The notes under the pieces: generated by a model
Told to the model about the DNA's origin: nothing
Database searches by the model: none
The model's input: only the letters and a program-made list of their open reading frames with translations
Program-made: the position numbers and the translations under genes
NCBI GenBank assembly: GCA_964494885.1
Contig: CAZBTH010000003.1
Span: 5,983-69,982 of the forward strand
DNA length: 64,000 bases
Direction of reading: 5' to 3'
Origin: an uncultured Gammaproteobacteria bacterium
GTDB taxonomy: Bacteria > Patescibacteriota > Microgenomatia > UBA8517
Shown here: positions 15,874 to 30,397 of the stretch, piece after piece
Position numbering within the stretch: position 1 is the stretch's first letter
How the letters are laid out: each line of letters begins with the position of its first letter

Positions 15874-15880
15874 ACTTTTG

Positions 15881-15952
15881 TGCCCTCAGAGGGAATTGAA
15901 CCTCCATCTTACCCTTAGGACGGGTCTGCTCTATCCGTTGAGCTATGAGGGC
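15881..15952 (-). tRNA. tRNA-Arg (anticodon CCT)
   Basis: The reverse complement folds as a cloverleaf. Acceptor GCCCTCA/TGAGGGC, anticodon loop GTCCTAA, T-loop TTCAATT. CCA not encoded. Confidence 0.8.
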
Positions 15953-15961
15953 ATATTTACC

Positions 15962-16036
15962 TGGTCGGGGTGCTGGGAATTGAACCCAGTGTCTTTACGT
16001 CCCGAACGTAACGTGATACCGATTCACTACACCCCG
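15962..16036 (-). tRNA. tRNA-Pro (anticodon CGG)
   Basis: Acceptor CGGGGTG/CACCCCG, D-stem GTGA/TCAC, anticodon stem TTACG/CGTAA, loop TTCGGGA, T-arm CTGGG-TTCAATT-CCCAG. CCA encoded. Confidence 0.85.
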
Positions 16037-16686: not shown

Positions 16687-17685
16687 ATGCTAGCCAAACT
16701 TAAACAAAAAATTATCGATAAGACTTCCGGTAAACGCAAAAACGAGACTTCTCCCGAGATCTTCGACGAGTTTAAGTTAAAAACCGGCAAAAAGAATCAG
16801 CTTTTTACTTTTTTTAAACCCGAAGTGTTTTTGAAAAAGACTCCGGATCAGATCGAAAAAATATTAGACTTGGTATTTAAAAAACTTGAGGAATATGAAG
16901 TCAGCGTTGACGGAGCCGCCCTTTTCCCGGGAGCAGCTATCGGCAAATACACAATAATGGATAAGCACTACGGCGTAATTAATACCCTATCTAAAAATGC
17001 CTCCAAAATTCTTAGCAAAGACGAACGTAATTTGGTCTTAAAGACTCTCGGTATAACAAACCCAAATACAAAGATATTGGGCGGGCACGAAGCATATGAA
17101 ATTTCTGGCTTCGGCAGAACTTACGATTTCGATACTTATTGGTTGGAGGCCCCCTCAACAAAAATTAAAAGTGGGTTCTATGTTAGAAAAATGAAAATTG
17201 GAGACAGCGAAACTGTTGTTGTAAACGGATTCCATCCCCATCAACTCGCCCACTACACCGAACCGGACAGATTTGTGGGAACGATGTTAGTCTCTTCTGA
17301 CCGTGACTGGTCGGTACTCAGAACCGAGATGCTGGGCGAAACCTTTCCGGATAAGGCGGTACCGGGTTCGATTCGCGGAATGCTATACAAAGATGCAAAA
17401 ACATACGGGTTTGAAACAGTAACCATCGCCAATAATGCCCTACATCTCTCAGCAGGCCCAACTGAAGCGTTATTCGAAATCGACAACTTTCTGAACAAGC
17501 CGTTTGGAATTGACTTCATAAAAGAAGAGGCAAACTTAAGTAAAAAATTAATGGATAAAGGTATAAAAGAAGAAGATATAAGGAGTATTATCAATGACAA
17601 AGAGGTTCATTCTCTTTTGGAACACAAGAATACCAGTGAAGCAATCGAATTGATTGAGTCAAAACTGATGCAGAAAGATATATAA
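16687..17685 (+). CDS. Nucleoside-diphosphate-kinase-like protein (divergent, extended to 332 aa)
   Basis: QLFTFFKPEVF resembles the NDK N-terminal strand. GSIRGMLY...NALHLSAG resembles the NDK active site (G-T-I-R-G-D ... N-x-x-H-G-S). Confidence 0.45.
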   Translation: MLAKLKQKIIDKTSGKRKNETSPEIFDEFKLKTGKKNQLFTFFKPEVFLKKTPDQIEKILDLVFKKLEEYEVSVDGAALFPGAAIGKYTIMDKHYGVINTLSKNASKILSKDERNLVLKTLGITNPNTKILGGHEAYEISGFGRTYDFDTYWLEAPSTKIKSGFYVRKMKIGDSETVVVNGFHPHQLAHYTEPDRFVGTMLVSSDRDWSVLRTEMLGETFPDKAVPGSIRGMLYKDAKTYGFETVTIANNALHLSAGPTEALFEIDNFLNKPFGIDFIKEEANLSKKLMDKGIKEEDIRSIINDKEVHSLLEHKNTSEAIELIESKLMQKDI

Positions 17686-17722: not shown

Positions 17723-19009
17723 CTATATCAAGAGCTTTTTATACTTCTCCCCGTCCTTGTATGGCCCTATTATGGCCAAATTCAAGTGATCTTTAACAAA
17801 TATCTTTTTAGCTTCGTTTACGACTTCTTCTTTTGTCACTTTACCGATTCTCTTGTAAAGTTCGTCCGGAGTTAAAACCTCTTTCAAAAACATCACCTGT
17901 TCTGCAAAAAAGTCGCCTGCTGCTTGAGTATCTTCCAAGGAAAGCGCAATATGGCCCTTAAGATATTCTTTTGTTTTTTCCAACTCCTTGGGGGAAATCG
18001 GAAACTTGCCGTCCGCCAGACCGTAGAGTTGATCCAGAATAACTTTAATTGCTTCTTCGCTCTTGCCCGTATCCACACCTGCATAAAACCCTGTATATCC
18101 TACTTCGTTAAATTTATCTCCTGCCGGTTTAACAGCGTATGCCAATCCACGACGTTCCCTGACTTCTATAAACAACCTTGAACTCATAGGCCCTGCCAGT
18201 ATTGTGGAAAGTACACTTTGGGCAAATCGTCCCGAATACCCCCTGCCCTCGCTTAAAAAACCAAGGATTATATGAGCCTGTTCAACCTTTTTGATTTTAA
18301 GTTTAAATTTAGGACTTTTTTGTTCCGCTTTAAAGGTCTGACCTTTAAAGTCACTTATAGTTTTTCCACCTAGTGGGTGGAGAGAAGTAAAATATTTATT
18401 TACTAATTCAAGGGCTTCTTTTTCTGTAATACCGCCAGAAACTGAAACAAACATATTTTCGGGATAGTAATGTCGTCCTCTGTAAAGTTCGAAGTCGCTT
18501 TTAGTTATTCGTTTTACGCTCTTTGCTTCCCCACCTATATCCCACCCCAATGAACTACCTTTAAAAATTAGCCCCTCAAAAACATCGTGAATTTTTACCA
18601 TTGGAGTATCCTCGTACATCGCAAGTTCCTGAATAATCGTCCCTTTTTCGCGTTCTATCTCCTCGGGTTTTAGAAGCGGAGAAAGAACCATGTCACTTAA
18701 TACATCCATTGCGGTTTCGACACTACCTGAACGGGATTTTATATAAAAATTTGTCCAATCCTTACTTGTTGCCGCATTAAACTCTCCTCCTATCGAGTCC
18801 ACCGCCTCACTAATTGCCTTAGCGGAAGGTCTTTTTGCACTACCCTTAAAAACCATGTGTTCTAAGAAGTGGCTGATACCGTTGATTCGTTTGTCCTCAA
18901 ATCTTGACCCGGTTTTGACCCACACAGTTACGGTTACCGACTCCAACCCCGGCATGGGGACAGTTACAACAGTCAAACCGCTTTTTAGTTTATGAAGTTT
19001 GTATTCCAT
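17723..19009 (-). CDS. M16-family zinc peptidase (pitrilysin/insulinase-like) with an in-frame REP insertion
   Basis: Inverted zinc motif HFLEHMVFKGS (HxxEH). The likely start is MEYKLHKL at 19009. Confidence 0.8.
   Translation of the reverse strand: MEYKLHKLKSGLTVVTVPMPGLESVTVTVWVKTGSRFEDKRINGISHFLEHMVFKGSAKRPSAKAISEAVDSIGGEFNAATSKDWTNFYIKSRSGSVETAMDVLSDMVLSPLLKPEEIEREKGTIIQELAMYEDTPMVKIHDVFEGLIFKGSSLGWDIGGEAKSVKRITKSDFELYRGRHYYPENMFVSVSGGITEKEALELVNKYFTSLHPLGGKTISDFKGQTFKAEQKSPKFKLKIKKVEQAHIILGFLSEGRGYSGRFAQSVLSTILAGPMSSRLFIEVRERRGLAYAVKPAGDKFNEVGYTGFYAGVDTGKSEEAIKVILDQLYGLADGKFPISPKELEKTKEYLKGHIALSLEDTQAAGDFFAEQVMFLKEVLTPDELYKRIGKVTKEEVVNEAKKIFVKDHLNLAIIGPYKDGEKYKKLLI
18328..18350. repeat. 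REP-like palindrome inside the M16 peptidase coding sequence
   Basis: CTTTAAAGGTCTGACCTTTAAAG, translated in frame as FKGQTFKA. Confidence 0.85.
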
Positions 19010-19117
19010 GAAGCTAGTATATAGTATATTGTATGTAGTATGTAGGGGGAGCGAAAACCATGAAACTAGGATATAGTACATTGTATATGGGGAAACATAG
19101 GCACAAGGACAAAAGAC

Positions 19118-19471
19118 ATGATATTAAAATTTACTGATTTAATAGCCTGGAAAGAGGCTCACAAATTAGTCCTTCTTACATACAAAGTATTGGAAACTTT
19201 TCCCAAAAAGGAAATTTTTGCCTTATGTGACCAAATTAGAAGATGTGTAGTCTCGATTGGTGCAAATATTGCAGAAGGATTTTCAAGACGAGGCAAAAAA
19301 GAGAAAACTCAGTTTTATTACATTTCCAAAGGTTCACTAACCGAATTAGAAAATCATTTCATAGTTGCCAGAGATGTTGGCTATATTGACAAAAAGGAAT
19401 TCGAAAAGGTACTTGGGCAAATGGATTTAGTCGGCCGCTTACTTACCGGTCTTATCCGCTCAGTCTCCTAA
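19118..19471 (+). CDS. Four-helix-bundle protein (TIGR02436 / 23S rRNA IVS-protein family)
   Basis: WKEAHKLVLLTYKV...QIRRCVVSIGANIAEGFSR...KGSLTELENHF is the canonical family signature. Confidence 0.8.
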   Translation: MILKFTDLIAWKEAHKLVLLTYKVLETFPKKEIFALCDQIRRCVVSIGANIAEGFSRRGKKEKTQFYYISKGSLTELENHFIVARDVGYIDKKEFEKVLGQMDLVGRLLTGLIRSVS

Positions 19472-19484
19472 TCCCGCGCCCTAT

Positions 19485-19611
19485 CTCTTCCCCATATACT
19501 ATATACCACATACTAGTTCCTCTAGTTCCAGGCCCCCCTCTTCCCTATATACGATATACTATATACAACATACTACTTTGCCCCAACATACAATATACGA
19601 TATACTAGTTT
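19485..19611. repeat. ATATAC heptamer arrays flanked by C-runs
   Basis: ccccATATACtATATACcacATACtag...ccctATATACgATATACtATATACaacATACtac...ATACaATATACgATATACtagtttATG. Confidence 0.8.
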
Positions 19612-20124
19612 ATGTCCCAAAATCCTCATGGTAAATCCAGTCAGATCATAAAGAGTTTTGAGGCTAAATTACTTAGTAAAAGGTCTTTTGTGGCCAAAGT
19701 TGTAGATTTCCTTACCTCGTACTTCGGAACAATAGGATTTCTTTTCGCAAACGCGGCTATTTACGGAATTTGGGTTTTGGGAAATTCAGGAAAAATTCCC
19801 GGATTCCCCCAGGTTGACCCCTACCCCTACTCTTTCATGAATTCTTTCGTTTCAATAGAGGCGATCATTTTGTCCGTAATAGTTCTGATGAGTCAAAACC
19901 GGGAAAACCAGCGTGATATTTTACGAAACGAACTAGGACTACAGGTTGAGCTAATTTCAGAAAAAGAAATCACCAAAATACTTAAAATCCTCAAAGAAAT
20001 CCGCTCGGGAAAGAAGAATTCGGAACCCGACCAGGAGCTTGAGGAAATGACAAAAGAAATCGACGCAGGGTATATTGAAAGAAAACTGGAAAAAGAACTT
20101 ACGGAATCAGAAAAAATTACTTGA
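19612..20124 (+). CDS. DUF1003-family membrane protein
   Basis: Two TM helices plus DPYPY...SQNRQ-type conserved core. Paralog of 25477-26001. Confidence 0.65.
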   Translation: MSQNPHGKSSQIIKSFEAKLLSKRSFVAKVVDFLTSYFGTIGFLFANAAIYGIWVLGNSGKIPGFPQVDPYPYSFMNSFVSIEAIILSVIVLMSQNRENQRDILRNELGLQVELISEKEITKILKILKEIRSGKKNSEPDQELEEMTKEIDAGYIERKLEKELTESEKIT

Positions 20125-20275
20125 CATTGAACTTCTATAGGCTTAAACTTCCCTCAAAGTTTGCTGAAAACTTTAATAGATTCCCGCCTACGCGGGAATG
20201 ACAGTTGGGAATGTGCACTTTTACATCATAATTCAAATTCAATTTTCATTTCTTGACCCACGAAAGGAGGTTAAG

Positions 20276-21514
20276 ATGGATAACTATTTGAAAGCGTTTC
20301 CTGATACAAGTCCTGCAACAAAGCACCAACTGCGTCACCTTCTTTCACAAGTTGGTAATGTAGACGAAGTTTTGAGGAAGGCAACCGAAAACGGTGTACC
20401 ACCGAAGAGTTTGGTCCAATGGCTTGATAAAAGCATTCAGAGACAACAAAAATCCCCAAGCAATCAACCGGTTGTTGCAGCGACAGCACCGAGACGAGCC
20501 GGGGATCAATCTTCTGAACGAAAAGTGGAAGAGCCCGCAGAAGAAGCCGAGGATCCAGCAGAGGAAAAACCGGAATGGCGTGAACGATTGACGGGATGGC
20601 TCGGCCGTGGCAAGTCAGGTAAGAAAGCCAAAGCTGATCAAGTTCAAGCTGGCAATCGAGACAGCCAAAAAAATTCCGGCTTGGTTAAATGGATCGGAAT
20701 CGGAATTGTAATTGTAGCAGTTGGTCTGGCCGGCTGGCAGTTTATGAGGAACGGCATAGCCCTTCCCAGTTTCAGCGGTGACAGAACAGATTTCAATCTC
20801 TCTGGCGCGCCAAGTTTTATCATAACTCTACTGTTTGCCCCAACTATTCTTGTAGCCATAAACATTATCTCATTCGCCGAATCATTTTCCAGAAAAGAAA
20901 GATGGCTCCTTGACTGGTGGATCGCAATACTAACAGTTGTTGCTCTGGTTGAACGGGTCGCTATCGGCGAAAAGCTCTGGTTGTTCCTTTTGGGCGCATG
21001 CACCTTTGGAATGGCTGTAGCCATCTTTTTAAACGAATCTCAAGAACAAGGTGGTTGGTTCGATACAATCGACTTAACCCCGTTGGGGAACGCTGCCGGA
21101 ATGCTTTTGATCATACACGCCGCCAATTGGGCCGCCATTCCATATCCTACATATGTTCCAATCTGGATCGTGTGGATTGTTTTTGGCATTTCTATGATCA
21201 AGGAACTCGCACGAACATTTTGGCTTGGGATATTTGCAGTCGTAACTGGTGTAGCGGCAGCAATTACACTTAATATCTCGGTGATTTCTATCTGCCTCGC
21301 AGCATCGGTAATCGCGGTAACCTGGGGTTCACGTAAAGGATGGGTTCCAACGTCTCGGCACCGTAGCGATACCTCTGTTTTCTCGGGAAGTGGTCGAGAA
21401 CTTTCGATCATCATTCCCTATGACGTAGTCCTTGGGCAAGTTTATGCGTTCGCGTTAACAGCGTTTGCCCTGTACGGCAACTTTTTGGTTGCGACATTTA
21501 CAGGCGGGCAATAA
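20276..21514 (+). CDS. Polytopic membrane protein with a charged N-terminal cytoplasmic domain (island gene 1)
   Basis: AAAGGAGG SD 6 nt upstream of the ATG. Roughly 7 predicted TM helices. About 48% GC. Confidence 0.6.
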   Translation: MDNYLKAFPDTSPATKHQLRHLLSQVGNVDEVLRKATENGVPPKSLVQWLDKSIQRQQKSPSNQPVVAATAPRRAGDQSSERKVEEPAEEAEDPAEEKPEWRERLTGWLGRGKSGKKAKADQVQAGNRDSQKNSGLVKWIGIGIVIVAVGLAGWQFMRNGIALPSFSGDRTDFNLSGAPSFIITLLFAPTILVAINIISFAESFSRKERWLLDWWIAILTVVALVERVAIGEKLWLFLLGACTFGMAVAIFLNESQEQGGWFDTIDLTPLGNAAGMLLIIHAANWAAIPYPTYVPIWIVWIVFGISMIKELARTFWLGIFAVVTGVAAAITLNISVISICLAASVIAVTWGSRKGWVPTSRHRSDTSVFSGSGRELSIIIPYDVVLGQVYAFALTAFALYGNFLVATFTGGQ

Positions 21515-21608
21515 CAAATTTCGCATCAACCAAACCCCCCCGTGGGACGGATATTTCTTCAATTCAGAAGAAAAAATCATCTCACGGGGTACAAATCGGA
21601 GGTCCGAA

Positions 21609-21839
21609 ATGAAAAAATTGTTTGCGAAATTCAGTTCGTCAATGTCAACATCAAAATGGCGACCGACTATCCCAACCCAAACCAAAACAATTGGAAAGGT
21701 GTTTTTCGACTTTCTGATCCTGGCTATTGTGATGACATCAATTGTCGTTGGGATCTTTTCCAAGAATCTTATGATTCCGGCGATCGTACTCCTTGCTTTG
21801 TTTGTATTAAGTTTTTTTATCCAGCGAAAGCCCGGATAA
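21609..21839 (+). CDS. Small membrane protein, 76 aa (island gene 2)
   Basis: GGAGG SD upstream. Two hydrophobic helices. Confidence 0.5.
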   Translation: MKKLFAKFSSSMSTSKWRPTIPTQTKTIGKVFFDFLILAIVMTSIVVGIFSKNLMIPAIVLLALFVLSFFIQRKPG

Positions 21840-21849
21840 GGAGGAAGAA

Positions 21850-22743
21850 ATGTTAAAGAAGATCAAAATCAGTGAACGAGGAGATGGTCGGATAATATTC
21901 GTCCTCCTCCTCGCGATCGTGGTAATCGTTATTCTCCTGCTGTTCGGAGGGGGAGCCCAATTAGTGGCTATCAACTCTGTGTCGCGGCTCCTGGAGTGCC
22001 AAGACATGGGAATTCTGGGAGTAAGACTGCAAAATTCATACTCGCCCAAACAGGAGTATGCAATGGAGCACCAATTCCCTGATGACGTCGCTTCTGGGCA
22101 GGTTAGATACATAAGCATTCTGGGTGATGACATCACCATCCCCAAAGAAGGCTGGGGAGACATCTACGCAAGACGGGAAGACTTTTCCTATTGCGTCGAC
22201 GACCTAACCGACGACAAAAAGAAAAGGACTTGCATTGACAACTACTACGGCAATCCCGATGCCGGATTTGCCACAGTTGGCATTGGTGGAACCATTTGGA
22301 AACCCACAGATTATGGCCAACTGAGCGGGCAAAAAATGTACGTCAGCGTGGCATTCATCACCGGCCTGACGGATTTTGGGTTCCCTATCGGAGCAATCGT
22401 CATTAATGACGATTACAATCCGGACTTTTCACCCCAGGCGTATACCCCTGACTTTCAGGCCTCCCTCGCATGCAAGATGCTTGTTTGGGAAGGTACTGAT
22501 AAATCAGAGATCAATTGCAGGGACTTTGGATACTTGCCTTACACGAATAAAGTAATTCAAGGGCCCTCGATAATCAACGGAGCTGGATACTATATCGTCG
22601 AAGGGTGCTCTAATGGGATTTGGGTAAAACCGTATTCAGAAATGCAGCCGGGGGCTTTAGACGGCCTTTCCCAAAAAACGTTGGAATCGATTGTCGAGAT
22701 GTTCGGACAAATCACCGCTCCGGCTCCGGCTTCGACACCCTAA
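21850..22743 (+). CDS. Signal-anchored extracytoplasmic Cys-containing protein (island gene 3)
   Basis: AAGGAGG SD. N-terminal TM anchor followed by a soluble domain with several Cys. Confidence 0.6.
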   Translation: MLKKIKISERGDGRIIFVLLLAIVVIVILLLFGGGAQLVAINSVSRLLECQDMGILGVRLQNSYSPKQEYAMEHQFPDDVASGQVRYISILGDDITIPKEGWGDIYARREDFSYCVDDLTDDKKKRTCIDNYYGNPDAGFATVGIGGTIWKPTDYGQLSGQKMYVSVAFITGLTDFGFPIGAIVINDDYNPDFSPQAYTPDFQASLACKMLVWEGTDKSEINCRDFGYLPYTNKVIQGPSIINGAGYYIVEGCSNGIWVKPYSEMQPGALDGLSQKTLESIVEMFGQITAPAPASTP

Positions 22744-22765
22744 CCATTTCCTGGAGGACAATAAC

Positions 22766-23236
22766 ATGTCACAAAATTCGAGTCCAAAACCGGCCAACAA
22801 AAAGCCGATGTTTTTCGTCCTTGGTATCCTGGGAGCAATCGTCGGGATAGCCATTTTTGGAAGCGCAGCCGGAAGGTTTGTTGCATATTTGATCTGCGCC
22901 TTGTTCATTGGCGCGGTCGGCTATGTGACTTACAATTCTACCAAAGACGCCAAGTACTGGCTCGGCATACCTTTTGCCCTGACTTTCTTCGGCTTTGTCT
23001 TCGGAGCCTTTGAGGATGCTGCCAGATACGGAGCAAAAATCGGTGGCAGTTTTCAAGGCATCGCCTGGCTGCTACTCTGCCCTATTATCGCCATTGCCGT
23101 TGCCATAGGCAGCCGCTTGTATTCAAAGAAAAAGCCTGACATCGACGCAGGAATCAATGATACATTAAGGAATGTTGACACTGCGCTTGATAATGCAGCC
23201 GATGAATTGGGCAAACTGCTCAAATTGAAGAAGTGA
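22766..23236 (+). CDS. Membrane protein, 156 aa (island gene 4)
   Basis: GGAGG SD. About 4 TM helices. Confidence 0.55.
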   Translation: MSQNSSPKPANKKPMFFVLGILGAIVGIAIFGSAAGRFVAYLICALFIGAVGYVTYNSTKDAKYWLGIPFALTFFGFVFGAFEDAARYGAKIGGSFQGIAWLLLCPIIAIAVAIGSRLYSKKKPDIDAGINDTLRNVDTALDNAADELGKLLKLKK

Positions 23237-23250
23237 TACTTAAATCTTGA

Positions 23251-23295
23251 CCGCTCGTTGCGCTTTAATACAAAAAGCAACGGGCGGTTTTTTTT
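23251..23295 (+). terminator. Rho-independent terminator
   Basis: CCGCTCGTTGC ... GCAACGGGCGG stem followed by a run of 9 T. Confidence 0.8.
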
Positions 23296-23345
23296 GCCCA
23301 TCGAAGCTCGAAGAGCGAAGTTGGGTTTGGAGAAACCCGCCCCAC

Positions 23346-23374
23346 TTGACATACCATGTCTATAGGATTATACT
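23346..23374 (+). promoter_or_regulatory. Sigma70 promoter
   Basis: TTGACA-N17-TATACT, about 18 nt upstream of the ATG at 23392. Confidence 0.6.
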
Positions 23375-23391
23375 GCCGGCAAGTCAAAAAT

Positions 23392-24405
23392 ATGGCAAAA
23401 CCCGAGGAATCAGACAATAGCCAACAAGGTGAACTAGAAGGTGAACTAGTGATAGATGTCACCCCACTTAATCAAGCCGAAGAGGATTCGATTGAGGTGG
23501 CCAATCCTTCAAGAATGCGCAAATTGACTGGTGAGGAAATTAAATCACTAGGTCTTCCCGAAACAGTAGCCCCATTAATAACAAGCGCTGTCAGAAAATC
23601 AAAAAAAGGCCCAGACAAGCTCATCTATCTCCTTAGAACTGGTGAAGGAAGCGTTTTTGAAATGGATGAAAGGCATCCGATGGTCCAGGAAATGCAGATT
23701 AAGGCCGCCGGTGCTGCAATCGACACTTTTGAGACTGTAACCCCACTTCAAACGGCAAATGCGATCAAAAATGCAATTAGTCAATTTGGATATACTTTCG
23801 ATGGAGGGCCGCTTCAAGCTTGGGATTTTGCAATAAAAGCGATGGATAAGATGATCGAGTTCCAAAATAAACAATTACAAATTCATCAGATAAATGTGAT
23901 GCAAGCAGCAACAGTACAACTTCAATCGGACATAAGTCTTGGCCTCGCCGGATATTTGACTCTTCCACCGCTTAGAAAACGTGCAGCAGACATATTAATT
24001 CAACTAGGTCTTGCGGCCGCTGTTAAAAACTATTCTGGCCAAGACACTCTAGATGCGGCCGATAGACTTGGAAAAATAAACCTTCTTTTCGAACAGATGA
24101 CACAAGAGGCGGCCACTGCAAAAGCGCAGGGGAAGGCTGACCGGGCATATCTCGCTGCCGATAAGGCAAAAACATTTATCGGAGACATACTCGCACAAGG
24201 AAACGAAAGTACTATCGCCTTTTCTAAAACTTTGATTGGTTTTGTATTTGGAGACGACCATCAAGACGAAGGTGTGATAACGGCAACACTGAACAAAGCT
24301 GGGGAGTCGGGTCAAAAACTTCTTGCCCTTATACAAGGGTCGGGTCAGGGTATAAATGGTTTTTTCAAAAATTTGTTTAATAAAGGTGGAGGAGCACGAC
24401 CTTGA
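23392..24405 (+). CDS. Soluble alpha-helical hypothetical protein (island gene 5)
   Basis: ORF starts MAKPEESDN... The track start at 23356 lies inside the promoter. Confidence 0.55.
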   Translation: MAKPEESDNSQQGELEGELVIDVTPLNQAEEDSIEVANPSRMRKLTGEEIKSLGLPETVAPLITSAVRKSKKGPDKLIYLLRTGEGSVFEMDERHPMVQEMQIKAAGAAIDTFETVTPLQTANAIKNAISQFGYTFDGGPLQAWDFAIKAMDKMIEFQNKQLQIHQINVMQAATVQLQSDISLGLAGYLTLPPLRKRAADILIQLGLAAAVKNYSGQDTLDAADRLGKINLLFEQMTQEAATAKAQGKADRAYLAADKAKTFIGDILAQGNESTIAFSKTLIGFVFGDDHQDEGVITATLNKAGESGQKLLALIQGSGQGINGFFKNLFNKGGGARP

Positions 24406-24520
24406 CCGAAAAGGCCGAGATGGAAAATAACAGTCCCACTCTTGCAATCCCCTAATAATAATCCTACAATCCCCCTGCAACTTAACATTACCCTGAAAAG
24501 GGAATAAAAAGGAGAATCTT

Positions 24521-24955
24521 ATGAACGACCTGATTTGGTATTTGGTCTTATCAATTGCCGGTGCTGTAGGCTTTTTCATCGCGATCTTCATGCCTTTTTT
24601 GTGTGAGATCAAGAAAACAAGACTGGAGATGGAAAAGAAACGCGCGTTACGGGCGAAAAATCCGATTTCTTTCGGCCTCAATTATTTCTTTGACGAAAAC
24701 GACAGAATTGAGGCTGTCGTCACTGACATCGACTATGAAGCCGGAGAGTTATCTATCGACGTCACCTTGCATGTAGCAGGTGACGACACCATCCTAAGTG
24801 CCCCGAACGACAGTGATTTGAGCAATGTCAGACTGTCGGTAAGGCACGCAGACGGAATAGTCGAAGCGCTATCGTTTGACATTGCAAATGACAAACCTGT
24901 CGCCTTTGACGGATGGGACATTGTAATAGACGACGTTCTTGCCAAAACTGGCTAG
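24521..24955 (+). CDS. Membrane-anchored hypothetical protein (island gene 6)
   Basis: AAAAGGAG SD. N-terminal TM helix. Confidence 0.55.
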   Translation: MNDLIWYLVLSIAGAVGFFIAIFMPFLCEIKKTRLEMEKKRALRAKNPISFGLNYFFDENDRIEAVVTDIDYEAGELSIDVTLHVAGDDTILSAPNDSDLSNVRLSVRHADGIVEALSFDIANDKPVAFDGWDIVIDDVLAKTG

Positions 24956-24978
24956 GTCGTTTTCTTAAAGGAGACATT

Positions 24979-25362
24979 ATGCCATTCAAAACCTGGTCAG
25001 CTCTGATATTTTTGACGTTCGTGCTTGCAATATTTGTGATAACGCCGTTATGCTACGCTATCGGCGATAAAAAGGCCGAAACCGAACTATTGAACAGAGA
25101 GTTTACTGTTTTCGCCTCGGTTGTCAACAACACTGAAAAAACGCAAATCGGAACAATTCAGGCCAATTCGGTATCTGGAGTTTGGGAATTTGGATATATT
25201 GGGTATGTGTCTGGTCCAATCCAGCTTGACAACGGCTTTAATCTTACATCGGAACAGGGTGGTTACATTCTTACAAAAGAGAACGTTCCAAACAAGGTTT
25301 ATTTGACAGTCGGTACCGTAAAAGGATGGCAGATAGTTTACGCTAATCCAATTCTTCCATAG
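24979..25362 (+). CDS. Signal-anchored or secreted hypothetical protein (island gene 7)
   Basis: AAAGGAG SD. N-terminal hydrophobic signal MPFKTWSALIFLTFVLAIFVITPLCYA. Confidence 0.55.
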   Translation: MPFKTWSALIFLTFVLAIFVITPLCYAIGDKKAETELLNREFTVFASVVNNTEKTQIGTIQANSVSGVWEFGYIGYVSGPIQLDNGFNLTSEQGGYILTKENVPNKVYLTVGTVKGWQIVYANPILP

Positions 25363-25376
25363 GATGAAAGTCAACA

Positions 25377-25437
25377 AGAGCAGCGCTAAATCACCCAAAA
25401 GGTGAATCCTAACAAAGGACGCTGCTCTTTTTTTTGG
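25377..25437 (+). terminator. Rho-independent terminator with a long loop
   Basis: AGAGCAGCG ... CGCTGCTCT stem followed by a run of 9 T. Confidence 0.7.
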
Positions 25438-25476
25438 TTATTGCCAACCCCAAAAGCCCGGGACTACAATCCAAGT

Positions 25477-26001
25477 ATGCCGGGAGATCATGTAAAGTCC
25501 AGCCACCGCCTAATCCAAAGTTTTGAGGCAGACCAGCTCAAGAATCGTCCAAAATTCATACAAATTGCAGACCGATTAACTTTGTTGTTTGGGAGCATTA
25601 GTTTTTTTACTCTTAATGCCTTGCTTTTTATTGTTTGGATAGCAATCAATACAGGGTCCGTCCCACTTATACCGGTCTTTGACCCCTACCCTTTTATTCT
25701 TTTGACTATGTTTGTTTCGCTTGAGGCAATTTTTCTTTCCATAATCGTTCTTATGAGCCAAAACAGACAGGGGCACATTTTTACCCTCCGCGAGGAACTT
25801 GATATGCAGGTTAATCTCCTGGCAGAACGCGAAATAACTATGTCACTTAAAATTTTGAAGCTGATGGCAAACAAAATGGGAGTAAAAATTAAGGATAAAG
25901 AACTGGGCGAGATGGTTAAAGAAACCGATATTTCTTATATCCAAAGAGAAATACAGGAACAAATTCAGGAAAGAAAACGTCTTTCCAAAAATACAAAATA
26001 A
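25477..26001 (+). CDS. DUF1003-family membrane protein (paralog of 19612-20124)
   Basis: Aligns throughout with the 19612 ORF, including DPYPF...LMSQNRQ. The start at MPGDHV aligns with the paralog start. Confidence 0.65.
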   Translation: MPGDHVKSSHRLIQSFEADQLKNRPKFIQIADRLTLLFGSISFFTLNALLFIVWIAINTGSVPLIPVFDPYPFILLTMFVSLEAIFLSIIVLMSQNRQGHIFTLREELDMQVNLLAEREITMSLKILKLMANKMGVKIKDKELGEMVKETDISYIQREIQEQIQERKRLSKNTK

Positions 26002-26195
26002 AAACAATAAGCAAGTGTCCTTGCGAGGAGCAGTAAGCGACGCGGCAATCTATAACGGATGAGATTGCTTCGTATGACTCGCAATGACAAAAAGCATCAC
26101 ATTCGTTCGGGCGCTTTCCCCACGAGATTTTCGCTCTCGCCTTTAGGTATTATTCATACACGGCTCGTGCCAAAATCTGGCGGGGCTACACGCCC
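26002..26195. other. GC-rich structured ORF-free region with a 20-nt direct repeat that duplicates the ArgS C-terminal codons
   Basis: TCACATTCGTTCGGGCGCTT occurs at 26097-26116 and again at 26196-26215, where it forms the argS 3' end. Nested hairpins lie between the copies. Confidence 0.6.
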
Positions 26196-28025
26196 TCACA
26201 TTCGTTCGGGCGCTTGTATCCCAAGAAGTTGAAGGCCATTCTTAAGTATCTGCCCTGTTGCAGCTGTAAGCGTCACTCTGAATGCACTTATACTCTTCCA
26301 CTCTTCTGCTTTTCTACTCTCATCCTCCAAAATTCTAAATTTATTGTAAAAAGTATTATATTTCGAAGCCAAATCATATAAATAGTTACACAAAAGATTG
26401 GGTGAGTAAGTTTTGGCTGCAGTCGCTATTACCTCAGTAAATCGGGATAAAGCTCTTAGTAACGACAATTCTTCTTCAGTTTCCATTTTCCATTTGCCAT
26501 TTATCATTTCATTTGTAGATTTGCTTATTTGCTTATTTGTAGATTTAAGAAGTACGCTGTTGCATCGAGCAACTGTATATTGAAGATATGGGCCCGAGTT
26601 GCCTTCCAAAGACAGGGAACTTTCAAAATCGAACGCAATGTCCCCGCCTATCCCTTGCTTTAAAAATGCATATTTAACGGCTCCAAGGGCAACCTGTTCT
26701 GCAATTTCATCTTCCATATTGTGTGCATCAAGAAGTTTTTTCTTAGCTTCGTCCAAAACCCATTCCCCCCTAATAATTTTTCCGGTTCTTGAACTCATCT
26801 TTCCTTCGGGAAGACGGACCATCCCGTGCCCTATGTGTGTTGTAGCCTCGGCAAGATCCTTTTTGTACATAGATAGGGCTTTAAGGACAACGTCAAAATA
26901 GGCATCAATCTCGTTACCGGTCACGATAATCGATTTGTCATATGGAAAATCTTTGTATTTGGCAACAGCATTGCCGAAATCCTTGGCTTCGTATGTGGGC
27001 AAATTAAGGGCATTTATAAAAACCCTATTATGCAAACCGTATTTTTCTCCAGGAAAAATTACAGCGCCACGCTCACCCTTCTCAAAAATTCCTTTGGCCA
27101 AACCGTCCAAAACCATTCCATAGCCAAATTCTCCGGTTCTGCTTTCCGGATAATAGCCGTCAAACTTCATCCCAACCCTTTTATAAATTGATTCGAAATA
27201 TTCCAAACTCCATGCCCTACCAATTTCATAAATATTTTTGATTTCAGAATAAGAATACTTGCCGTCTTTTTTGATATATTGATCGTAGTTCACCTGTGGA
27301 GATTCGTTGAATTCCGGCAAAACCACTTCCTGTGCAGCCTTGAAAATTAAAAAGTTAAGCTCTTTCATATCTTCTACTGCTTTCGGATCTTCTTCAAAAG
27401 CAGTTGCACCTTTTGCGTATGCTTGTCCAAAATACTCGATTCTTTCTTTTAGAGGCTTTTCGGTAAGGTCTTTAATATCAACTTTGTCCTCTGAAAACTT
27501 AAACATTAAACCCCAAATCGCCTTGGCAGCATGCATGCCAACATCGCCAAAATAATCGGCTCGCCATACGTCTCCGCCAATCGCGCTTTGCAAGCGGCTA
27601 ATCGATTCACCAACCGTATTTGTATATAAGTGGCCTATATGAAACTCTTTGAATGGGTTGGGATCGGTATATTCAACAACTACTTTTTTACCCTTAAGAA
27701 AACCGCTCTTTCCATAACTTTCCCCTTCTTTCTGTATCTTCCCAAGCTCGTTGACAAGGGTCCCCCCTGTCAACCAAAAATTTATAAAACCCGGGCCGGC
27801 GACTTCAATTTTTTCAATAAATTTGGATAATTCGGGAGACTGGGATAGTTTGATTTTGATTTCTTCAGCCAATTCCCTTGGATTTTTGCCCTCGCTTTTT
27901 GCCATGATTAGCGCAATATTGCACGAGTAGTCGCCGAATGTTTCGTTTTCGGGAAATTCCAAGCTGATTTCCTTTGCTTTGGTTACAGCTTCTAAAGCCG
28001 TTAGTATTTTAGTTCTAGTTTCCAT
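26196..28025 (-). CDS. argS: Arginine--tRNA ligase
   Basis: HIGH-class motif region and KMSSRTG (the KMSKS-like motif). C-terminus ...LLGIQAPERM. The likely start is METRTKIL at 28025. Confidence 0.9.
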   Translation of the reverse strand: METRTKILTALEAVTKAKEISLEFPENETFGDYSCNIALIMAKSEGKNPRELAEEIKIKLSQSPELSKFIEKIEVAGPGFINFWLTGGTLVNELGKIQKEGESYGKSGFLKGKKVVVEYTDPNPFKEFHIGHLYTNTVGESISRLQSAIGGDVWRADYFGDVGMHAAKAIWGLMFKFSEDKVDIKDLTEKPLKERIEYFGQAYAKGATAFEEDPKAVEDMKELNFLIFKAAQEVVLPEFNESPQVNYDQYIKKDGKYSYSEIKNIYEIGRAWSLEYFESIYKRVGMKFDGYYPESRTGEFGYGMVLDGLAKGIFEKGERGAVIFPGEKYGLHNRVFINALNLPTYEAKDFGNAVAKYKDFPYDKSIIVTGNEIDAYFDVVLKALSMYKKDLAEATTHIGHGMVRLPEGKMSSRTGKIIRGEWVLDEAKKKLLDAHNMEDEIAEQVALGAVKYAFLKQGIGGDIAFDFESSLSLEGNSGPYLQYTVARCNSVLLKSTNKQISKSTNEMINGKWKMETEEELSLLRALSRFTEVIATAAKTYSPNLLCNYLYDLASKYNTFYNKFRILEDESRKAEEWKSISAFRVTLTAATGQILKNGLQLLGIQAPERM

Positions 28026-28059
28026 ATAAATTTTATAACTTTTATAATAGTTATAATTG

Positions 28060-28611
28060 TTATACACTGCTTTTTTTATACTCCATCCTCTTTTTAAACA
28101 AGTTCTCTCTAAAACCACCCTCTTTAATAAATTTCTCCTCGGTCCAACGAAGTTTTTGATCCAAAAGTTGGTTTGTTTGGTTTATTAAACAAAGCATGGC
28201 GTTGGCTGCAGCCTCGGGGTTCCCAATATAACTTTTATAAAGGTTATAATTTTTATAATTGTTATACGCAAGCCGTCGGACAGCTTGCGCCTCAGAAGAG
28301 CCCACTTCCCAAACCTTTAACCCTTTTTGTCTTAAGTAATCTTGATAGTCATTTAACAGTTCTTCTAAACTTCCTCTGGCAACACCTAAAAGTTTAATTC
28401 TGCCTTCCAGGCTTTTTTGCAAATATCCTTCAGCTATATTCTGTTTGCCGCTTCTTGCCGCCTGCTCCATTTGGTCTTTGGTGCGAGATTTGTAATTGAT
28501 ATAGAGTTTGCAAAATTCAACAGTAAAATCGTAAACAATTTCGCTTTGAATATAGAAAGGTAACGTTTTGTAACCCTTATTTTCCATTTTTACTATTTTA
28601 TTATAACCCAT
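28060..28611 (-). CDS. Four-helix-bundle protein (TIGR02436 family, long form; paralog of 16114)
   Basis: TVEFCKLYINYKSRTKDQMEQAARSGKQNIAEG aligns with the 16114 ORF. Confidence 0.6.
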   Translation of the reverse strand: MGYNKIVKMENKGYKTLPFYIQSEIVYDFTVEFCKLYINYKSRTKDQMEQAARSGKQNIAEGYLQKSLEGRIKLLGVARGSLEELLNDYQDYLRQKGLKVWEVGSSEAQAVRRLAYNNYKNYNLYKSYIGNPEAAANAMLCLINQTNQLLDQKLRWTEEKFIKEGGFRENLFKKRMEYKKSSV

Positions 28612-29708
28612 TAATCAGGCTTGGCATATTCGCTAATTACTTTCTCAAATATTTTTGCACACTTTTCGACCTTATCAGAATAACAATATTCATTCGCCTT
28701 ATGCATCTGTGTTATCTCCCCCGGACCGAATATTACTGTCGGAATTCCAATTTGCGTAAAAAACGGCATGTCAGTAGACCCCGGGAATGCCACCAGTTTT
28801 GCCTTTGAAACGTTTTTGACAATTTTGGCGATATCTTCGCCGCTTTCCGTAAACCCAAAGCTAACCGGCGGATAAAGGTACTCAACTTTACCAATTCTGC
28901 CTACAGATTTTTTTACAGCCTCAAAAGCAGTTTCATGTATTTCCGGAATGGTTCTAATATCGAATGTTGCGGAGCACGCATCCGGAAATTTATTTGGGGC
29001 TATTTCAGTTCCAGCCATGATAGAGGTGGCAAGGCTAATTGTAGGAAATCCTAAAATCTTATTCTTGTATTTCTTTTTCCACTCGGCACCCAAGTTATCT
29101 ATTCTTGATATCAATTTAAACATTCTTAGAACTGCATGATCAGATTTCTTAATTGGCTTGCTCCCATGCCCCGAGTCCCCCGTCGTAATCACTTTTATAA
29201 ACAAATTTCCTTTATGCGCGACACCGATTAACCCTAATCCTGTTGGTTCACAGACAATTGCTGATACTTTTTTATATACTTTTAGATGCTTTGTTGCCAA
29301 CCACTCAACTGTATCATTTGTCCCGTGACCATCCACTTCTTCCCCCACTGTAAACGTGAGAATTACATCACACTCCGGTTTTTTGACAGAAAATTCTTTT
29401 GCCAAAAGCATAAGTACCGCGACCGAAGCTTTATTATCGCTTGATCCAAGACCAAATATCTTGCCGTCTTTTCCGATTCCACCAAAAGGATCGTGTTGCC
29501 ATAGATCAATATCTCCCGGGCTTACCGTATCTACATGAGAATTAAATATCAGGCATTTTTTACTGTTTGACCCTTTTACGGCCGCAACCACATTACCTTT
29601 AATATTTATGGTTTTAAGTCCACAAGAGGTCAAGAAATCATAAATATATCCGATGATCTCCTTTTCCTCACCTGTCACAGAATTTATTTGTATTAACTTT
29701 TTTAACAT
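28611..29708 (-). CDS. M20-family metallopeptidase (ArgE/DapE-like deacylase)
   Basis: NSHVDTVSPG and GSSDNKAS metal-binding motifs. Size fits the family. Confidence 0.7.
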   Translation of the reverse strand: MLKKLIQINSVTGEEKEIIGYIYDFLTSCGLKTINIKGNVVAAVKGSNSKKCLIFNSHVDTVSPGDIDLWQHDPFGGIGKDGKIFGLGSSDNKASVAVLMLLAKEFSVKKPECDVILTFTVGEEVDGHGTNDTVEWLATKHLKVYKKVSAIVCEPTGLGLIGVAHKGNLFIKVITTGDSGHGSKPIKKSDHAVLRMFKLISRIDNLGAEWKKKYKNKILGFPTISLATSIMAGTEIAPNKFPDACSATFDIRTIPEIHETAFEAVKKSVGRIGKVEYLYPPVSFGFTESGEDIAKIVKNVSKAKLVAFPGSTDMPFFTQIGIPTVIFGPGEITQMHKANEYCYSDKVEKCAKIFEKVISEYAKPD

Positions 29709-30181: not shown

Positions 30182-30182
30182 G

Positions 30183-30219
30183 TGCGCCCGGCGGGAATCG
30201 AACCCACAACCACGGGCGC
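30183..30219 (-). ncRNA. tRNA-like minihelix (acceptor stem plus T-arm only) abutting the GNAT start codon
   Basis: On the minus strand: GCGCCCG-TGGTT-GTGGG-TTCGATT-CCCGC-CGGGCGC-A, followed immediately by CATGG, the GNAT start. There is no D-arm or anticodon arm. Confidence 0.5.
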
Positions 30220-30224
30220 AAGCT

Positions 30225-30267
30225 AGACTACGTTCTTTATTCCCCTTGGAACGTAGTCTCTTTTTGG
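30225..30267 (+). terminator. Strong hairpin plus T-run (plus-strand terminator-like) next to the minihelix
   Basis: AGACTACGTTC-13 nt loop-GAACGTAGTCT followed by CTTTTTGG. Confidence 0.45.
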
Positions 30268-30397
30268 ACTTATTTTGTTATGCAAAAGGTATATCTTGCT
30301 CCAGTTACACAAACAACTTTGTTGTCATTTGTGTTTTTATTACAACCTACAAGTAATAGCGACACCAAGGTCAAACAGGTAAGCAACTTCCTGATTT

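Follow-up and report, generated by a model that had tools for sequence, protein, structure and literature searches.

What is the origin of a block of seven same-strand genes (g1 to g7) lying at positions 20200-25440 of a 64,000-nucleotide stretch of DNA (hereafter the window), and what might its products do? An earlier note had described it as a likely horizontally acquired envelope module, inserted between duplicated DUF1003 genes. The reading favoured here, with a probability of roughly 0.6, is that of a long-resident, lineage-specific accessory locus of Woesebacteria (CPR/Microgenomates), a flexible genomic island of the replacement type that encodes a co-regulated membrane-associated complex.

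Gene organization and composition of the block

The seven ORFs, all on the plus strand, are flanked by core genes on the minus strand. The features of the locus are listed below.

17723..19009, minus strand: M16 peptidase (Pfam Peptidase_M16 and M16_C), left core anchor
19118..19471, plus strand: gene for a 23S-rRNA-IVS-type four-helix-bundle protein (PF05635, E = 2.7e-35)
19612..20124, plus strand: DUF1003a, 2-TM protein (PF06210, E = 4e-23)
20119..20157, plus strand: promoter P1 of g1-g4; TTGACA (20121-20126), N8, CTATAGG, N2, TAAACT (20144-20149); spacing 17
20276..21514, plus strand: g1, 412 aa; SD AAAGGAGG
21609..21839, plus strand: g2, 76 aa, 2-TM hairpin, first gene of the hypervariable core; SD GGAGG
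21850..22743, plus strand: g3, 297 aa; SD AAGGAGG
22766..23236, plus strand: g4, 156 aa, four TM helices and a polar C-terminal helix; SD GGAGG
23249..23297, plus strand: intrinsic terminator T1, end of the g1-g4 operon; 13-bp stem and U8, -22.8 kcal/mol, z = -4.0
23344..23382, plus strand: promoter P2 of g5; TTGACA (23346-23351), N8, CTATAGG, N2, TATACT (23369-23374), then GCCGGCAAGT; spacing 17
23392..24405, plus strand: g5, 337 aa, soluble, mostly alpha-helical; no SD, leader of about 10 nt
24521..24955, plus strand: g6, 144 aa, N-terminal TM helix, basic stretch and acidic beta-rich domain; SD AAAGGAG
24979..25362, plus strand: g7, 127 aa, signal-peptide-like N-terminus and beta-rich domain; SD AAGGAG
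25376..25437, plus strand: intrinsic terminator T2; branched hairpin with 10-bp outer stem and U8, -25.4 kcal/mol, z = -3.2
25477..26001, plus strand: DUF1003b (PF06210, E = 4e-27)
26196..28025, minus strand: arginyl-tRNA synthetase (ArgRS; Pfam families), right core anchor

GC content of the block is 45.6%, compared with 40.3% for the whole window and about 38-43% in the adjoining kilobases. When all sliding windows of 5.24 kb were compared, the block ranked practically at the top (maximum 0.459, mean 0.406, sd 0.018). The elevation noticed earlier is thus real, but its figures (48% against 38%) were overstated: within the block 48.5% is reached only at 22-23 kb, and elsewhere positions 47-49 kb give 48-49%. 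A GGAGG or AGGAG sequence is located 5-10 nt upstream of the ATG in six of the seven genes (all except g5, although an SD had been ascribed to each), and such sites are, as stated earlier, largely absent elsewhere in the window (4 of 58 genes; Fisher p = 1.7e-5). GC3 amounts to 0.46-0.55 in g2, g3, g4 and g6 compared with 0.375 ± 0.05 elsewhere; it is not elevated in g5 (0.34), and the GC excess of g1 resides mainly at codon positions 1 and 2. In NNY codons, C-ending preference is 0.52 versus 0.36. Either high expression or repeated import from a gene pool of higher GC content could account equally well for the raised GC3, and the NNY preference does not discriminate between the two. The membrane-protein genes rely on strong SD sites and favour codons ending in C, and most remaining genes of the genome appear to begin right after a -10 box (leaderless type).

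The consensus promoters and strong intrinsic terminators claimed earlier were both found (P1 and P2, T1 and T2). The -35 box of P1 overlaps the stop codon of DUF1003a, P2 matches the consensus at 11 of 12 positions, and g5 starts 17 nt downstream of the TATACT box. P1 and P2 are 74% identical across 39 nt. Within 64 kb the motif CTATAGGNNTAWACT is present at these two sites only (0.09 expected by chance), and across 70 loci matches to TTGACA-N9-TATAG-N3-TAWAYT are restricted to module promoters. At least two transcription units would be controlled by near-identical sigma70-type promoters whose common spacer motif (TTGACA-N8-CTATAGG-N2-TAWACT) is specific to the module. P1 is predicted to drive g1-g2-g3-g4 up to T1, and P2 to drive g5, probably also g6-g7, up to T2. 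The likeness of their promoter sequences suggests that the two units are co-regulated.

According to hydropathy, g1 begins with a soluble domain of about 55 aa, which a charged linker connects to at least seven TM helices. Likewise, g3 is anchored by a TM segment near its positively charged N-terminus, and the ectodomain behind it (about 260 aa) contains six Cys residues. The earlier view that all products are membrane or extracytoplasmic proteins applies to most of them, but not to g5, in which hydropathy revealed no hydrophobic segment, nor to the C-terminal domain of g6, which the positive-inside rule would place in the cytoplasm. The label "envelope module" is reasonable for six of the seven products. 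As the note had anticipated, the block proteins resist annotation; no match was found in Pfam, NCBIfam, PHROG, PADLOC or PDB. Of the two remote-homology searches suggested there, the one with g3 returned only an ortholog in a related genome (L016, see below), no other homolog being found beyond its own cluster, and the one with g5 a small family. g5 is the founding member of this very small orphan family (15 clusters among 1.84 billion representatives), the closer half of which conserves the C-terminal motif G-[LIV]-N-x-F-[FL]-[KR]-N-[LV]-F. Its predicted structure, of low confidence (pLDDT 67, pTM 0.31), did not match any known fold. For g1, the L016 ortholog is the sole homolog among 5.8 billion proteins.

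Conservation of the locus in related genomes

Related Woesebacteria from groundwater have the cluster at the corresponding chromosomal site, the closest named relative being Ca. Woesebacteria GW2011_GWB1_39_10 (L016; ArgRS 85% identical). Gene order is the same in this genome (M16 peptidase, DUF1003a, g1, g2-like, g3, g4, g5-like, g6, DUF1003b, ArgRS), GC content of the locus is also raised (0.45-0.50 versus 0.35-0.42), and the SD pattern is shared, which contradicts the proposal of a recent insertion; common gene order with matching composition is what the note itself had named as refuting evidence. In L012 the order is M16 peptidase, two TM proteins of 531 and 70 aa, a g5 homolog, a protein of 113 aa and ArgRS, and in L011 an analogous module adjoins ArgRS. 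Identity to the window is 86% (L016) and 75% (L012) for the M16 peptidase, and 85-86% (L016), 71-74% (L012) and 37-46% (L011) for ArgRS. SD sites and raised GC3 on the membrane genes, with neither on g5, recur in L016, L012, L011 and L071. P2 is kept in L016, L012 and L011, and the latter two also have terminators at the position of T1. The membrane genes of L012 and L011 could not be shown to be homologous to g1, g2, g3, g4, g6 or g7 (best E about 0.003); that these two loci carry the same module rests on g5, position, architecture and the shared promoter.

In most other Microgenomates the genes for ArgRS and the M16 peptidase are neighbours; 14 other CPR loci have the pair in the same direction, 5 bp to 3 kb apart and with unrelated filler in between. 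The opposite-strand block at 19.0-26.2 kb is therefore an ancient lineage-specific insertion. Homologs of g1, g3, g5 and g6 were found at none of 47 other ArgRS loci. What stands of the proposed horizontal acquisition is an older, lineage-specific insertion with lateral exchange of inner alleles, not a recent event.

Pfam confirms that DUF1003 genes bracket the block. Both are clear members of the family (PF06210), each product having two TM helices and a coiled-coil-like C-terminal tail. No function is known for this family, which the literature found mentions only in passing. The start of DUF1003a is of the leaderless type (TATACT 6 nt upstream of the ATG), as is that of DUF1003b, which has its own promoter (TTGCCA-18-TACAAT, 25441-25470). 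Both genes are separate transcription units and are missing from the module as it occurs in L012 and L011; they are therefore its neighbours and not parts of it. The idea that they arose by target duplication on insertion, or that paralogs recombined, is not borne out. The two proteins are only 44% identical, and each has its own L016 ortholog in the same place (DUF1003a 94%, DUF1003b 96% identical); the genes are thus old paralogs and not an insertion duplication. At the nucleotide level the paralogs share a single 86-nt stretch of 71% identity, long repeats being absent. In L012 the module is flanked by the same two core genes, and DUF1003 genes are absent altogether. A syntenic genome with one DUF1003 gene and no island, for which the note had suggested looking, was not present among 24 Microgenomates/CPR ArgRS loci.

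The 23S-rRNA-IVS-type gene has inverted repeats on either side (19011-19094 and 19488-19611). Roughly 570 bp including this gene are missing from L016; it is an independent indel relative to L016 and lies outside the module. Similarly, the segment 24955-25465 with g7 is absent from L016, which makes g7 a presence/absence gene.

Mosaic divergence within the module

Between the window and L016, identity drops to alignment noise exactly at the start of g2 (21600). g2-g5 are at most 31% identical, with sharp breakpoints, and T1/P2 between them are kept. L016 has at the g2 position a 66-aa 2-TM analogue with no detectable sequence similarity. The g3 orthologs are 31% identical with three Cys residues kept, those of g4 27-28% (E = 3e-18), and the protein at the g5 position, at 23%, nonetheless belongs to the g5 family (hhalign probability 97%; HMM E = 3e-19). 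Identity of g6 is 67-71%. In contrast, g1 serves the module as a conserved anchor: nucleotide identity in its TM part is 92-99%, and its dS amounts to 0.21 for the whole gene and 0.15 for the TM part, compared with 0.56-1.8 in 13 other ortholog pairs. Constrained synonymous sites could account for some of this low dS. The g5 proteins most similar to that of the window are those of L011 (67%) and L012 (54%), L016 following at 23%, the reverse of the ArgRS order (46%, 74% and 86%, respectively).

Lateral exchange of alleles among the inner genes is supported. Because the searched data contain only four versions of the module (two with and two without DUF1003), recombination as its mechanism is suggested by pairwise patterns rather than by a population sample. 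Two observations point to an opportunity for such recombination. A ComEC gene is present in the window, and on one contig of the window strain (L002) a DUF1003a tract of 180 bp has exactly the sequence of the L016 allele, although this tract could be an assembly chimera.

Origin of the block and alternative explanations

The favoured replacement-type island would go back to an ancestor of a narrow subclade, in which argS and the M16 peptidase gene, neighbours until then, were separated by the insertion of a module on the opposite strand. Its framework (g1, the T1/P2 intergenic region and g6, plus the flanking DUF1003 genes in two genomes) is conserved, with g1 apparently even exchanged between species recently. 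The versions of g2-g5 would be alleles of great age and strong divergence that are replaced by homologous recombination, for which this framework provides the anchor. The products may assemble into a membrane-embedded complex with g1, g2 and g4 as polytopic core and g3, perhaps also g7, as exposed domains, g3 probably being disulfide-bonded. g5 would be located at the cytoplasmic face, possibly tethered via a short C-terminal amphipathic helix. Frequency-dependent selection by phages or by host or partner cells might uphold the diversity.

A purely vertical operon, whose composition follows from amino-acid content and expression-linked codons and whose central genes diverged fast in place under relaxed or positive selection, would dispense with lateral exchange. 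Synteny is conserved, the SD and GC pattern is common to four lineages, the GC excess of g1 lies chiefly at codon positions 1 and 2, the C-ending bias fits translational selection, and g6 evolves with a dN/dS of 0.24 at ordinary dS. Divergence in place can hardly explain, however, how the 48-nt T1 stayed 98% and P2 82% identical amid coding sequence saturated at all codon positions; moreover, neighbouring core genes exceed g1 in dS by a factor of 3 to 8, and the similarity rank of g5 reverses that of ArgRS. We regard this explanation as unlikely. Far less probable is a recent island that entered, or recombined between, the DUF1003 genes and left the paralogs as by-product. Its appeal lies in the raised GC (45.6% versus about 40%), translation signals atypical for the genome, the DUF1003 genes on either side and the lack of the block at this site in most Microgenomates. 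It is at odds with the old divergence of the paralogs, with the module of L012, and with L016, which has both copies and the module, of the same composition, at a core-gene dS of 0.6-1.8. GC3 of g5 is host-like in every host. In addition, no integrase was seen, flanking direct repeats and phage or plasmid similarity were likewise absent, and the nearest tRNA genes (15880-16036) are some 3.6 kb away on the left side.

Anti-phage defence or abortive infection in a variable hotspot, with g1, g2 and g4 as membrane effectors and g5 as cytoplasmic sensor, would agree with the variable locus between core genes, the discordant g5 phylogeny, the hypervariability of both cytoplasmic and membrane components, and the recurrence of a g5 homolog next to small SD-led multi-TM proteins. 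Yet none of the PADLOC models fitted any of nine proteins, searches for nuclease, NTPase, TIR, SIR2 and cyclase domains were negative, and the module occupies one fixed site with constant architecture and no alternative systems. Furthermore, the g5 homolog of L064 has soluble neighbours only, so the link of g5 to membrane partners is not universal. A role in defence is accordingly considered improbable. Hardly any weight is given to a remnant of a prophage or integrated element (a lysis or superinfection-exclusion cassette) or to a target locus of a diversity-generating retroelement (DGR), hinted at by the neighbouring four-helix-bundle gene with its weak bAvd-like Pfam match below the family cut-off. 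Such an element would be in keeping with small genes for membrane proteins that come with promoters, SD sites and terminators of their own. Against it, PHROG gave no match, no relatives were found among IMG/VR contigs and GenBank phages, a BFVD fold search was negative, a template/variable repeat pair was absent from 18.9-26.4 kb, no reverse transcriptase was detected among the large ORFs scanned, and the four-helix-bundle gene is the independent indel described above.

Comparison with known systems

Kiwa (KwaA/KwaB) is a two-gene defence system composed of a membrane and a soluble protein. Similarly, the 4-TM protein g4 (about 150 aa) adjoins the soluble g5 (about 330 aa) in a variable locus. 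The block differs in that it has no PADLOC match, that a terminator and a promoter separate g4 and g5, and that the unit includes another five genes. With classical islands, which are tRNA-linked and carry an integrase, it shares atypical GC content and codon usage and insertion relative to an ancestral gene order, but it is devoid of integrase, adjacent tRNA gene and direct repeats, is present in relatives at dS above 0.6, and contains in g5 a gene fully ameliorated to host composition.

The closest parallels are with replacement flexible genomic islands of aquatic prokaryotes (Lopez-Perez, Martin-Cuadrado and Rodriguez-Valera 2014, PMC4033161). These were defined by comparing strains within a single species; as a rule they contain genes for glycosyltransferases and for O-antigen, capsule, flagellar glycosylation or the S-layer, and their borders show diagnostic peaks of synonymous SNPs. 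As in these islands, the block occupies the same chromosomal position between core genes in related genomes, and its overall role and architecture match from genome to genome although the genes are very different or unrecognisable. Both also have envelope or exposed products (predicted for the block), sharp boundaries with signs of homologous recombination with other lineages, and atypical composition. The block differs in that it was compared across CPR species and genera, in two or three genomes, and in that it consists of seven orphan families with no enzymatic domain. A further difference is its internal terminator-promoter segment, which forms a conserved island inside a variable core.

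Composition and start signals of the block

The block at positions 20200-25440, referred to here as the module, carries seven genes, all on the plus strand.

20276-21514, +, g1
21609-21839, +, g2
21850-22743, +, g3
22766-23236, +, g4
23392-24405, +, g5
24521-24955, +, g6
24979-25362, +, g7

The GC content of the block was 45.6% compared to 40.3% for the whole window and approximately 38-43% for the adjoining kilobases, which places it at the top end of the sliding windows of 5.24 kb (mean 0.406, sd 0.018, maximum 0.459). The elevation reported in the earlier note is thus real, yet its size (48% against 38%) had been overstated. GC at third codon positions (GC3) was 0.43-0.55 in six of the genes versus 0.375 ± 0.05 elsewhere (Mann-Whitney p = 0.001-0.002), and C was preferred in NNY codons (0.52 versus 0.36). 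The excess is of mixed origin: in g1 it lies mostly at codon positions 1 and 2, in g3, g4 and g6 at position 3.

A Shine-Dalgarno (SD) site, defined as GGAGG or AGGAG at proper spacing before the start, was present in six of the seven module genes but not in g5, and in 4 of the 58 genes in the rest of the window (Fisher p = 1.7e-5). The scarcity of such sites outside the block was thereby confirmed, while the assertion that all seven genes possess one was not. A −10-like hexamer ending 4-12 nt upstream of the start codon was found for 22 of the 58 non-island genes versus 3.7% of random positions (examples in the window: 19594-19611, 25465-25476, 14665-14679). Background initiation therefore looks leaderless, with the island as the exception: in this genome, leaderless or near-leaderless starts seem to predominate, SD sites being kept for a few small envelope genes.

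Relatives and age of the locus

Identical proteins were found only on groundwater contigs (Rifle, PRJNA292723) of one strain. All ten Rifle contigs belong to this strain (99.8-100% identity), and an analysis of strain-level microdiversity was dropped for that reason. Among species representatives, Ca. Woesebacteria bacterium GW2011_GWB1_39_10 (locus L016; arginyl-tRNA synthetase ArgRS 85-86% and M16 peptidase 86% identical) is the closest, which assigns the window to the chromosome of a member of the Woesebacteria (CPR/Microgenomates).

Order and orientation of the genes match in L016: M16, DUF1003a (identity 94%), g1 (84-86%), a 66-aa 2-TM gene, g3 (31%), g4 (27%), a gene for a 285-aa protein, g6 (67-71%), DUF1003b (96%) and ArgRS. 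Only g7 and the gene at 19118-19471, which is of the 23S-rRNA-IVS four-helix-bundle type (IVP gene), are missing. Remote similarity places the 285-aa protein in the g5 family (hhalign probability 97%; E = 3e-19 with an HMM built without it). GC rises likewise (0.45-0.50 versus 0.35-0.42), and SD sites precede g1, g2, g3, g4 and g6; the gene at the g5 position lacks one and has a −10-proximal start. Recent acquisition, as proposed in the earlier note, is contradicted by this agreement in gene order, GC rise and SD pattern, the very result that the note had named as refuting it.

In L012, a more distant relative (ArgRS 71-74%, M16 75%), the interval between M16 and ArgRS encodes a 531-aa protein, a 70-aa TM protein, a g5 homolog (~53-54%) and a 113-aa TM-anchored protein, with no DUF1003 gene at the module. 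The 531-aa protein resembles g1 in build (many TM helices behind a soluble N-terminus and a long linker); a NUMOD3 motif at its N-terminus scored 19.7 bits against a cut-off of 20.4 and was not relied on. An analogous gene set adjoins ArgRS in a further relative, L011. The membrane genes of L012 and L011 have SD sites and raised GC3, and g5 has neither; these membrane genes could not be aligned, and homology to g1, g3, g6 or g7 was not demonstrable. The module is thus framed by M16 and ArgRS in three genomes (window, L016, L012), and in L011 it adjoins ArgRS. Among loci of other lineages, one g5 homolog (L071) adjoins an SD-led 4-TM protein gene with raised GC3, and another (L064) has soluble neighbours.

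ArgRS and M16 share a strand in 14 further CPR loci (Levy-, Woese-, Chisholm-, Wildermuthbacteria and others), at a distance of 5 bp to ~3 kb (once 7 kb) that is filled by unrelated genes. No homologs of g1, g3, g5 or g6 were found in 47 other ArgRS loci. Searches of GTDB genomes and JGI metagenomes with g5 patterns returned nothing, and g1 patterns retrieved from metagenomes only the L016 strain again. Given the contiguity of argS and the M16 gene elsewhere, the opposite-strand block of 19.0-26.2 kb must have entered an ancestral pair in a narrow subclade. Of the acquired envelope module postulated earlier, an ancient insertion therefore stands, but not the mechanism put forward for it.

That mechanism, a gene duplication linked to the insertion or a recombination between paralogs, concerned the two genes bracketing the island. 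Both do encode DUF1003 proteins (PF06210; 82 and 95 bits, gathering cut-off 27.4). Their identity of only 44% excludes that the insertion duplicated one of them; moreover, the pair is present in just two of four module-bearing genomes. On contig L002 of the window strain (ERZ5996431 NODE_1489), which is 99.97% identical to the window outside DUF1003a, this gene carries 33 clustered substitutions at window positions 19782-19961, mostly at third codon positions. The 180-bp tract is 100% identical to the GW2011_GWB1_39_10 allele and reflects either inter-species recombination or an assembly chimera.

Several small elements were observed near the DUF1003 genes. The IVP gene is flanked by inverted repeats (19011-19094 and 19488-19611) that consist of promoter-like units rich in TATAC. 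In L016 the entire ~570 bp (19011-19611) are missing, and the gap between M16 and DUF1003a is ~35 bp; the segment looks like a mobile IVS-like cassette. Directly 3' of DUF1003b lies a hairpin-forming element of ~85 bp (26009-26093); L016 has it at 99% identity and contains two more copies at other sites. The element is followed by a perfect direct repeat of 20 nt, TCACATTCGTTCGGGCGCTT (26097-26116 and 26196-26215), whose second copy lies at the 3' end of the ArgRS gene.

Promoters and terminators

Two near-consensus promoters and two strong terminators were found in the island, in agreement with the earlier description.

20121-20149, promoter P1 (g1-g4)
23249-23297, terminator T1
23346-23374, promoter P2 (g5)
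25376-25437, terminator T2

Over a stretch of 39 nt P1 shares 74% identity with P2, the common form being TTGACA-N8-CTATAGG-N2-TA(A/T)ACT. The pattern CTATAGG-N2-TAWACT occurs within the 64 kb only at these two sites (0.09 expected), and across 70 fetched loci the full promoter pattern matched module promoters only. P2 and the following GCCGGCAA are recognisable 5' of the g5 homologs in L016, L012 and L011, each time preceded by a terminator. From these sequence features we infer that the two transcription units are probably co-regulated and form one functional module. The spacer motif CTATAGG (20135-20141 and 23360-23366) contains the palindrome CTATAG and resembles the core of promoters of T7/SP6-type phage RNA polymerases. 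This likeness is most likely a coincidence because both sites are also near-perfect σ70 promoters.

Mosaic divergence from L016

Background nucleotide identity between the window and L016 is ~77-85%, with dS values of 0.56-1.8 in 13 ortholog pairs. Along the module, divergence departs from this level in both directions.

Divergence of the window from L016 (nucleotide level)
g1, overall: dS 0.21
g1, N-terminal domain: dS 0.12
g1, TM domain: dS 0.15; 92-99% identity over 20700-21500
g2-g4, from 21600 (start of g2): alignment noise
T1: 98%
P2: 82%
g5: alignment noise
g6: 64-86%
g7 segment, 24955-25465: missing in L016
DUF1003b: ~89-91%

At the protein level, identity is 31% for g3, 27% for g4, 23% for g5 and not detectable for g2, compared to 79-96% for core genes. 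Long antisense ORFs within g1 were rejected as genes, given that substitutions relative to L016 fall mainly at third codon positions of g1 (28 of 46 in its TM part).

The similarity order of g5 is the reverse of that of the core: identity to the window is 67% for g5 and 46% for ArgRS in L011, ~53-54% and 71-74% in L012, and 23% and 85-86% in L016. The pairwise comparisons of two or three genomes thus yielded sharp identity breakpoints, a low dS of g1, conserved T1 and P2, and a discordant g5. Divergence in place can hardly explain a regulatory segment kept between coding regions that are saturated at all codon positions. The conservation of T1 and P2 would fit an exchange of coding cassettes through recombination within conserved anchor sequences. 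The window species and the L016 species occur in the same aquifer, and ComEC is encoded in the window.

Predicted module proteins

As had been stated before, the products are unannotatable: none of the seven matched Pfam, NCBIfam, PHROGs or PADLOC above threshold. Word-indexed protein searches returned three relatives for g5, one for g1 (among 5.8 billion proteins) and none outside its own cluster for g3. An exhaustive HMMER search found only 15 clusters of the g5 family among 1.84 billion representatives.

Topology was read from hydropathy, Cys content and the positive-inside rule, an established principle. Accordingly, membrane proteins and one or two ectodomains are predicted. In g1, a cytoplasmic N-terminal domain and linker precede at least seven TM helices; g2 would form a 2-TM hairpin; g3 would combine an N-in anchor with a ~260-aa external domain that contains six Cys, three of them conserved in L016; g4 has four predicted TM helices, and g7 is signal-peptide-like. 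In g6 a TM helix is followed by a basic stretch, and its domain is therefore probably cytoplasmic.

No TM helix was found in g5. Closer members of its family share the C-terminal motif G-[LIV]-N-x-F-[FL]-[KR]-N-[LV]-F, with a high hydrophobic moment in several, which could be a membrane-targeting helix. AlphaFold2 models of g5 were of low confidence (pLDDT 57 with 4 sequences and 67 with 17; pTM ~0.3 (0.31)); the 17-sequence model showed a small N-terminal β sheet and subsequent helices of 40-50 residues. Foldseek found no match to this model in PDB or BFVD at E ≤ 0.001, and the g5-family profile gave only noise against PDB sequences (best E = 0.05).

Other features of the window

A second block differing from L016 spans 28000-32790; the M20 peptidase, acetyltransferase, 79-aa, 137-aa and σ70 genes in it have no L016 counterpart at that site. 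It holds two more small envelope genes that are SD-led and GC3-rich.

30398-30637, −, gene of a 79-aa 2-TM protein
31225-31638, lipoprotein gene

At 30183-30219 (minus strand) lies a tRNA-like minihelix, GCGCCCG-TGGTT-GTGGGTTCGATTCCCGC-CGGGCGCA, in which a 7-bp acceptor stem is directly joined to the T arm, with no D or anticodon arms. It was not called by ARAGORN or Rfam, is 93% conserved in L016 and differs from the tRNA genes at 15880-16036. The region 46614-53416 encodes a 1627-aa protein with an endosialidase-chaperone (Peptidase_S74) domain, followed by a Wzy_C and TPR membrane protein, and may be another surface-structure locus; the 1627-aa protein accounts for the other GC peak of the window (48-49% at 47-49 kb). 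A 332-aa gene (16687-17685) is absent from L016 at that position, and family searches gave only sub-threshold nucleoside-diphosphate-kinase-like matches.

Discussion

We favour, with a probability of about 0.6, a description of the module as an ancient insertion whose present evolution proceeds by replacement of cassettes. The atypical composition would also suit a classical mobile island. However, the module is present in L016 and L012 and lacks mobility hallmarks: gene calls of the locus had no integrase or transposase Pfam matches, the nearest tRNA genes are at 15880-16036, and no flanking repeats were found besides the 71%-identical DUF1003 core. An integrated element bracketed by these tRNAs (15.9 kb) and the tRNA-like fragment (30.2 kb) was rejected since the sequences differ. 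A simple foreign-DNA signature is likewise disfavoured, since the relative GC excess is the same in each host regardless of the host's own GC, and GC3 of g5 is not atypical and is host-like in every host examined. The composition is compatible with expression-linked codon choice as well as with continual import of alleles, and does not choose between them.

Other element classes were rejected too. A listed anti-phage defence system was not recognised (PADLOC-DB 2.0; no matches for nine proteins at E ≤ 0.01). A phage remnant would be expected to have relatives in PHROGs, IMG/VR or among GenBank phages, and there were none; the g5 model likewise had no BFVD fold match at E ≤ 0.001. The locus does not look like the target of a diversity-generating retroelement, as no template/variable repeat pair was found in 18900-26400 and the ten largest unassigned ORFs of the window contain no reverse-transcriptase domain.

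With regard to function, our tentative reading, at somewhat less than an even chance, is a membrane complex whose genes are co-regulated and in which an exposed, variable subunit is under diversifying selection. We consider a more comprehensive proposal rather unlikely as a whole. According to it, g1-g7 and the two CTATAGG-type promoters would represent an undescribed, CPR-restricted envelope apparatus of seven orphan families, in which a polytopic core is combined with an exposed subunit bearing disulfide bonds and with a helical scaffold at the membrane periphery. The specificity-determining genes g2-g5 would be swapped as cassettes between co-occurring Woesebacteria species, with g1 and the terminator-promoter segment as anchors, and the palindromic motif common to both promoters could be the target of a membrane-tethered regulator, namely the small N-terminal domain of g1.

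A life attached to other cells is assumed for CPR bacteria, whose envelope proteins are mostly unannotated. With its seven genes, its pair of matched promoters and a conserved frame around a hypervariable core, the locus offers a bounded set with which surface recognition or phage interplay in Woesebacteria can be tested. A patch rich in GC and SD sites denotes here a class of accessory envelope genes whose position and composition are kept across relatives; methodologically, such a patch is no marker of recent horizontal transfer in this genome. Should the contrast between SD-led accessory and leaderless-type core genes prove general, it would matter for the way CPR genomes divide up translation initiation. 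The locus provides a tidy example and a useful caution for the interpretation of anomalous GC and SD patterns in CPR genomes rather than a new principle.

Among known systems, replacement flexible genomic islands are described (PMC4033161) as having a fixed position and an equivalent role with very different genes, the products being thought exposed and the exchange occurring by homologous recombination. The module resembles them in that its position between core genes is kept and its architecture is equivalent, with highly divergent or non-homologous genes. It differs from the islands described there in taxonomic depth, in consisting of orphan families without glycosyltransferases, and in the conserved regulatory islet within its variable core.
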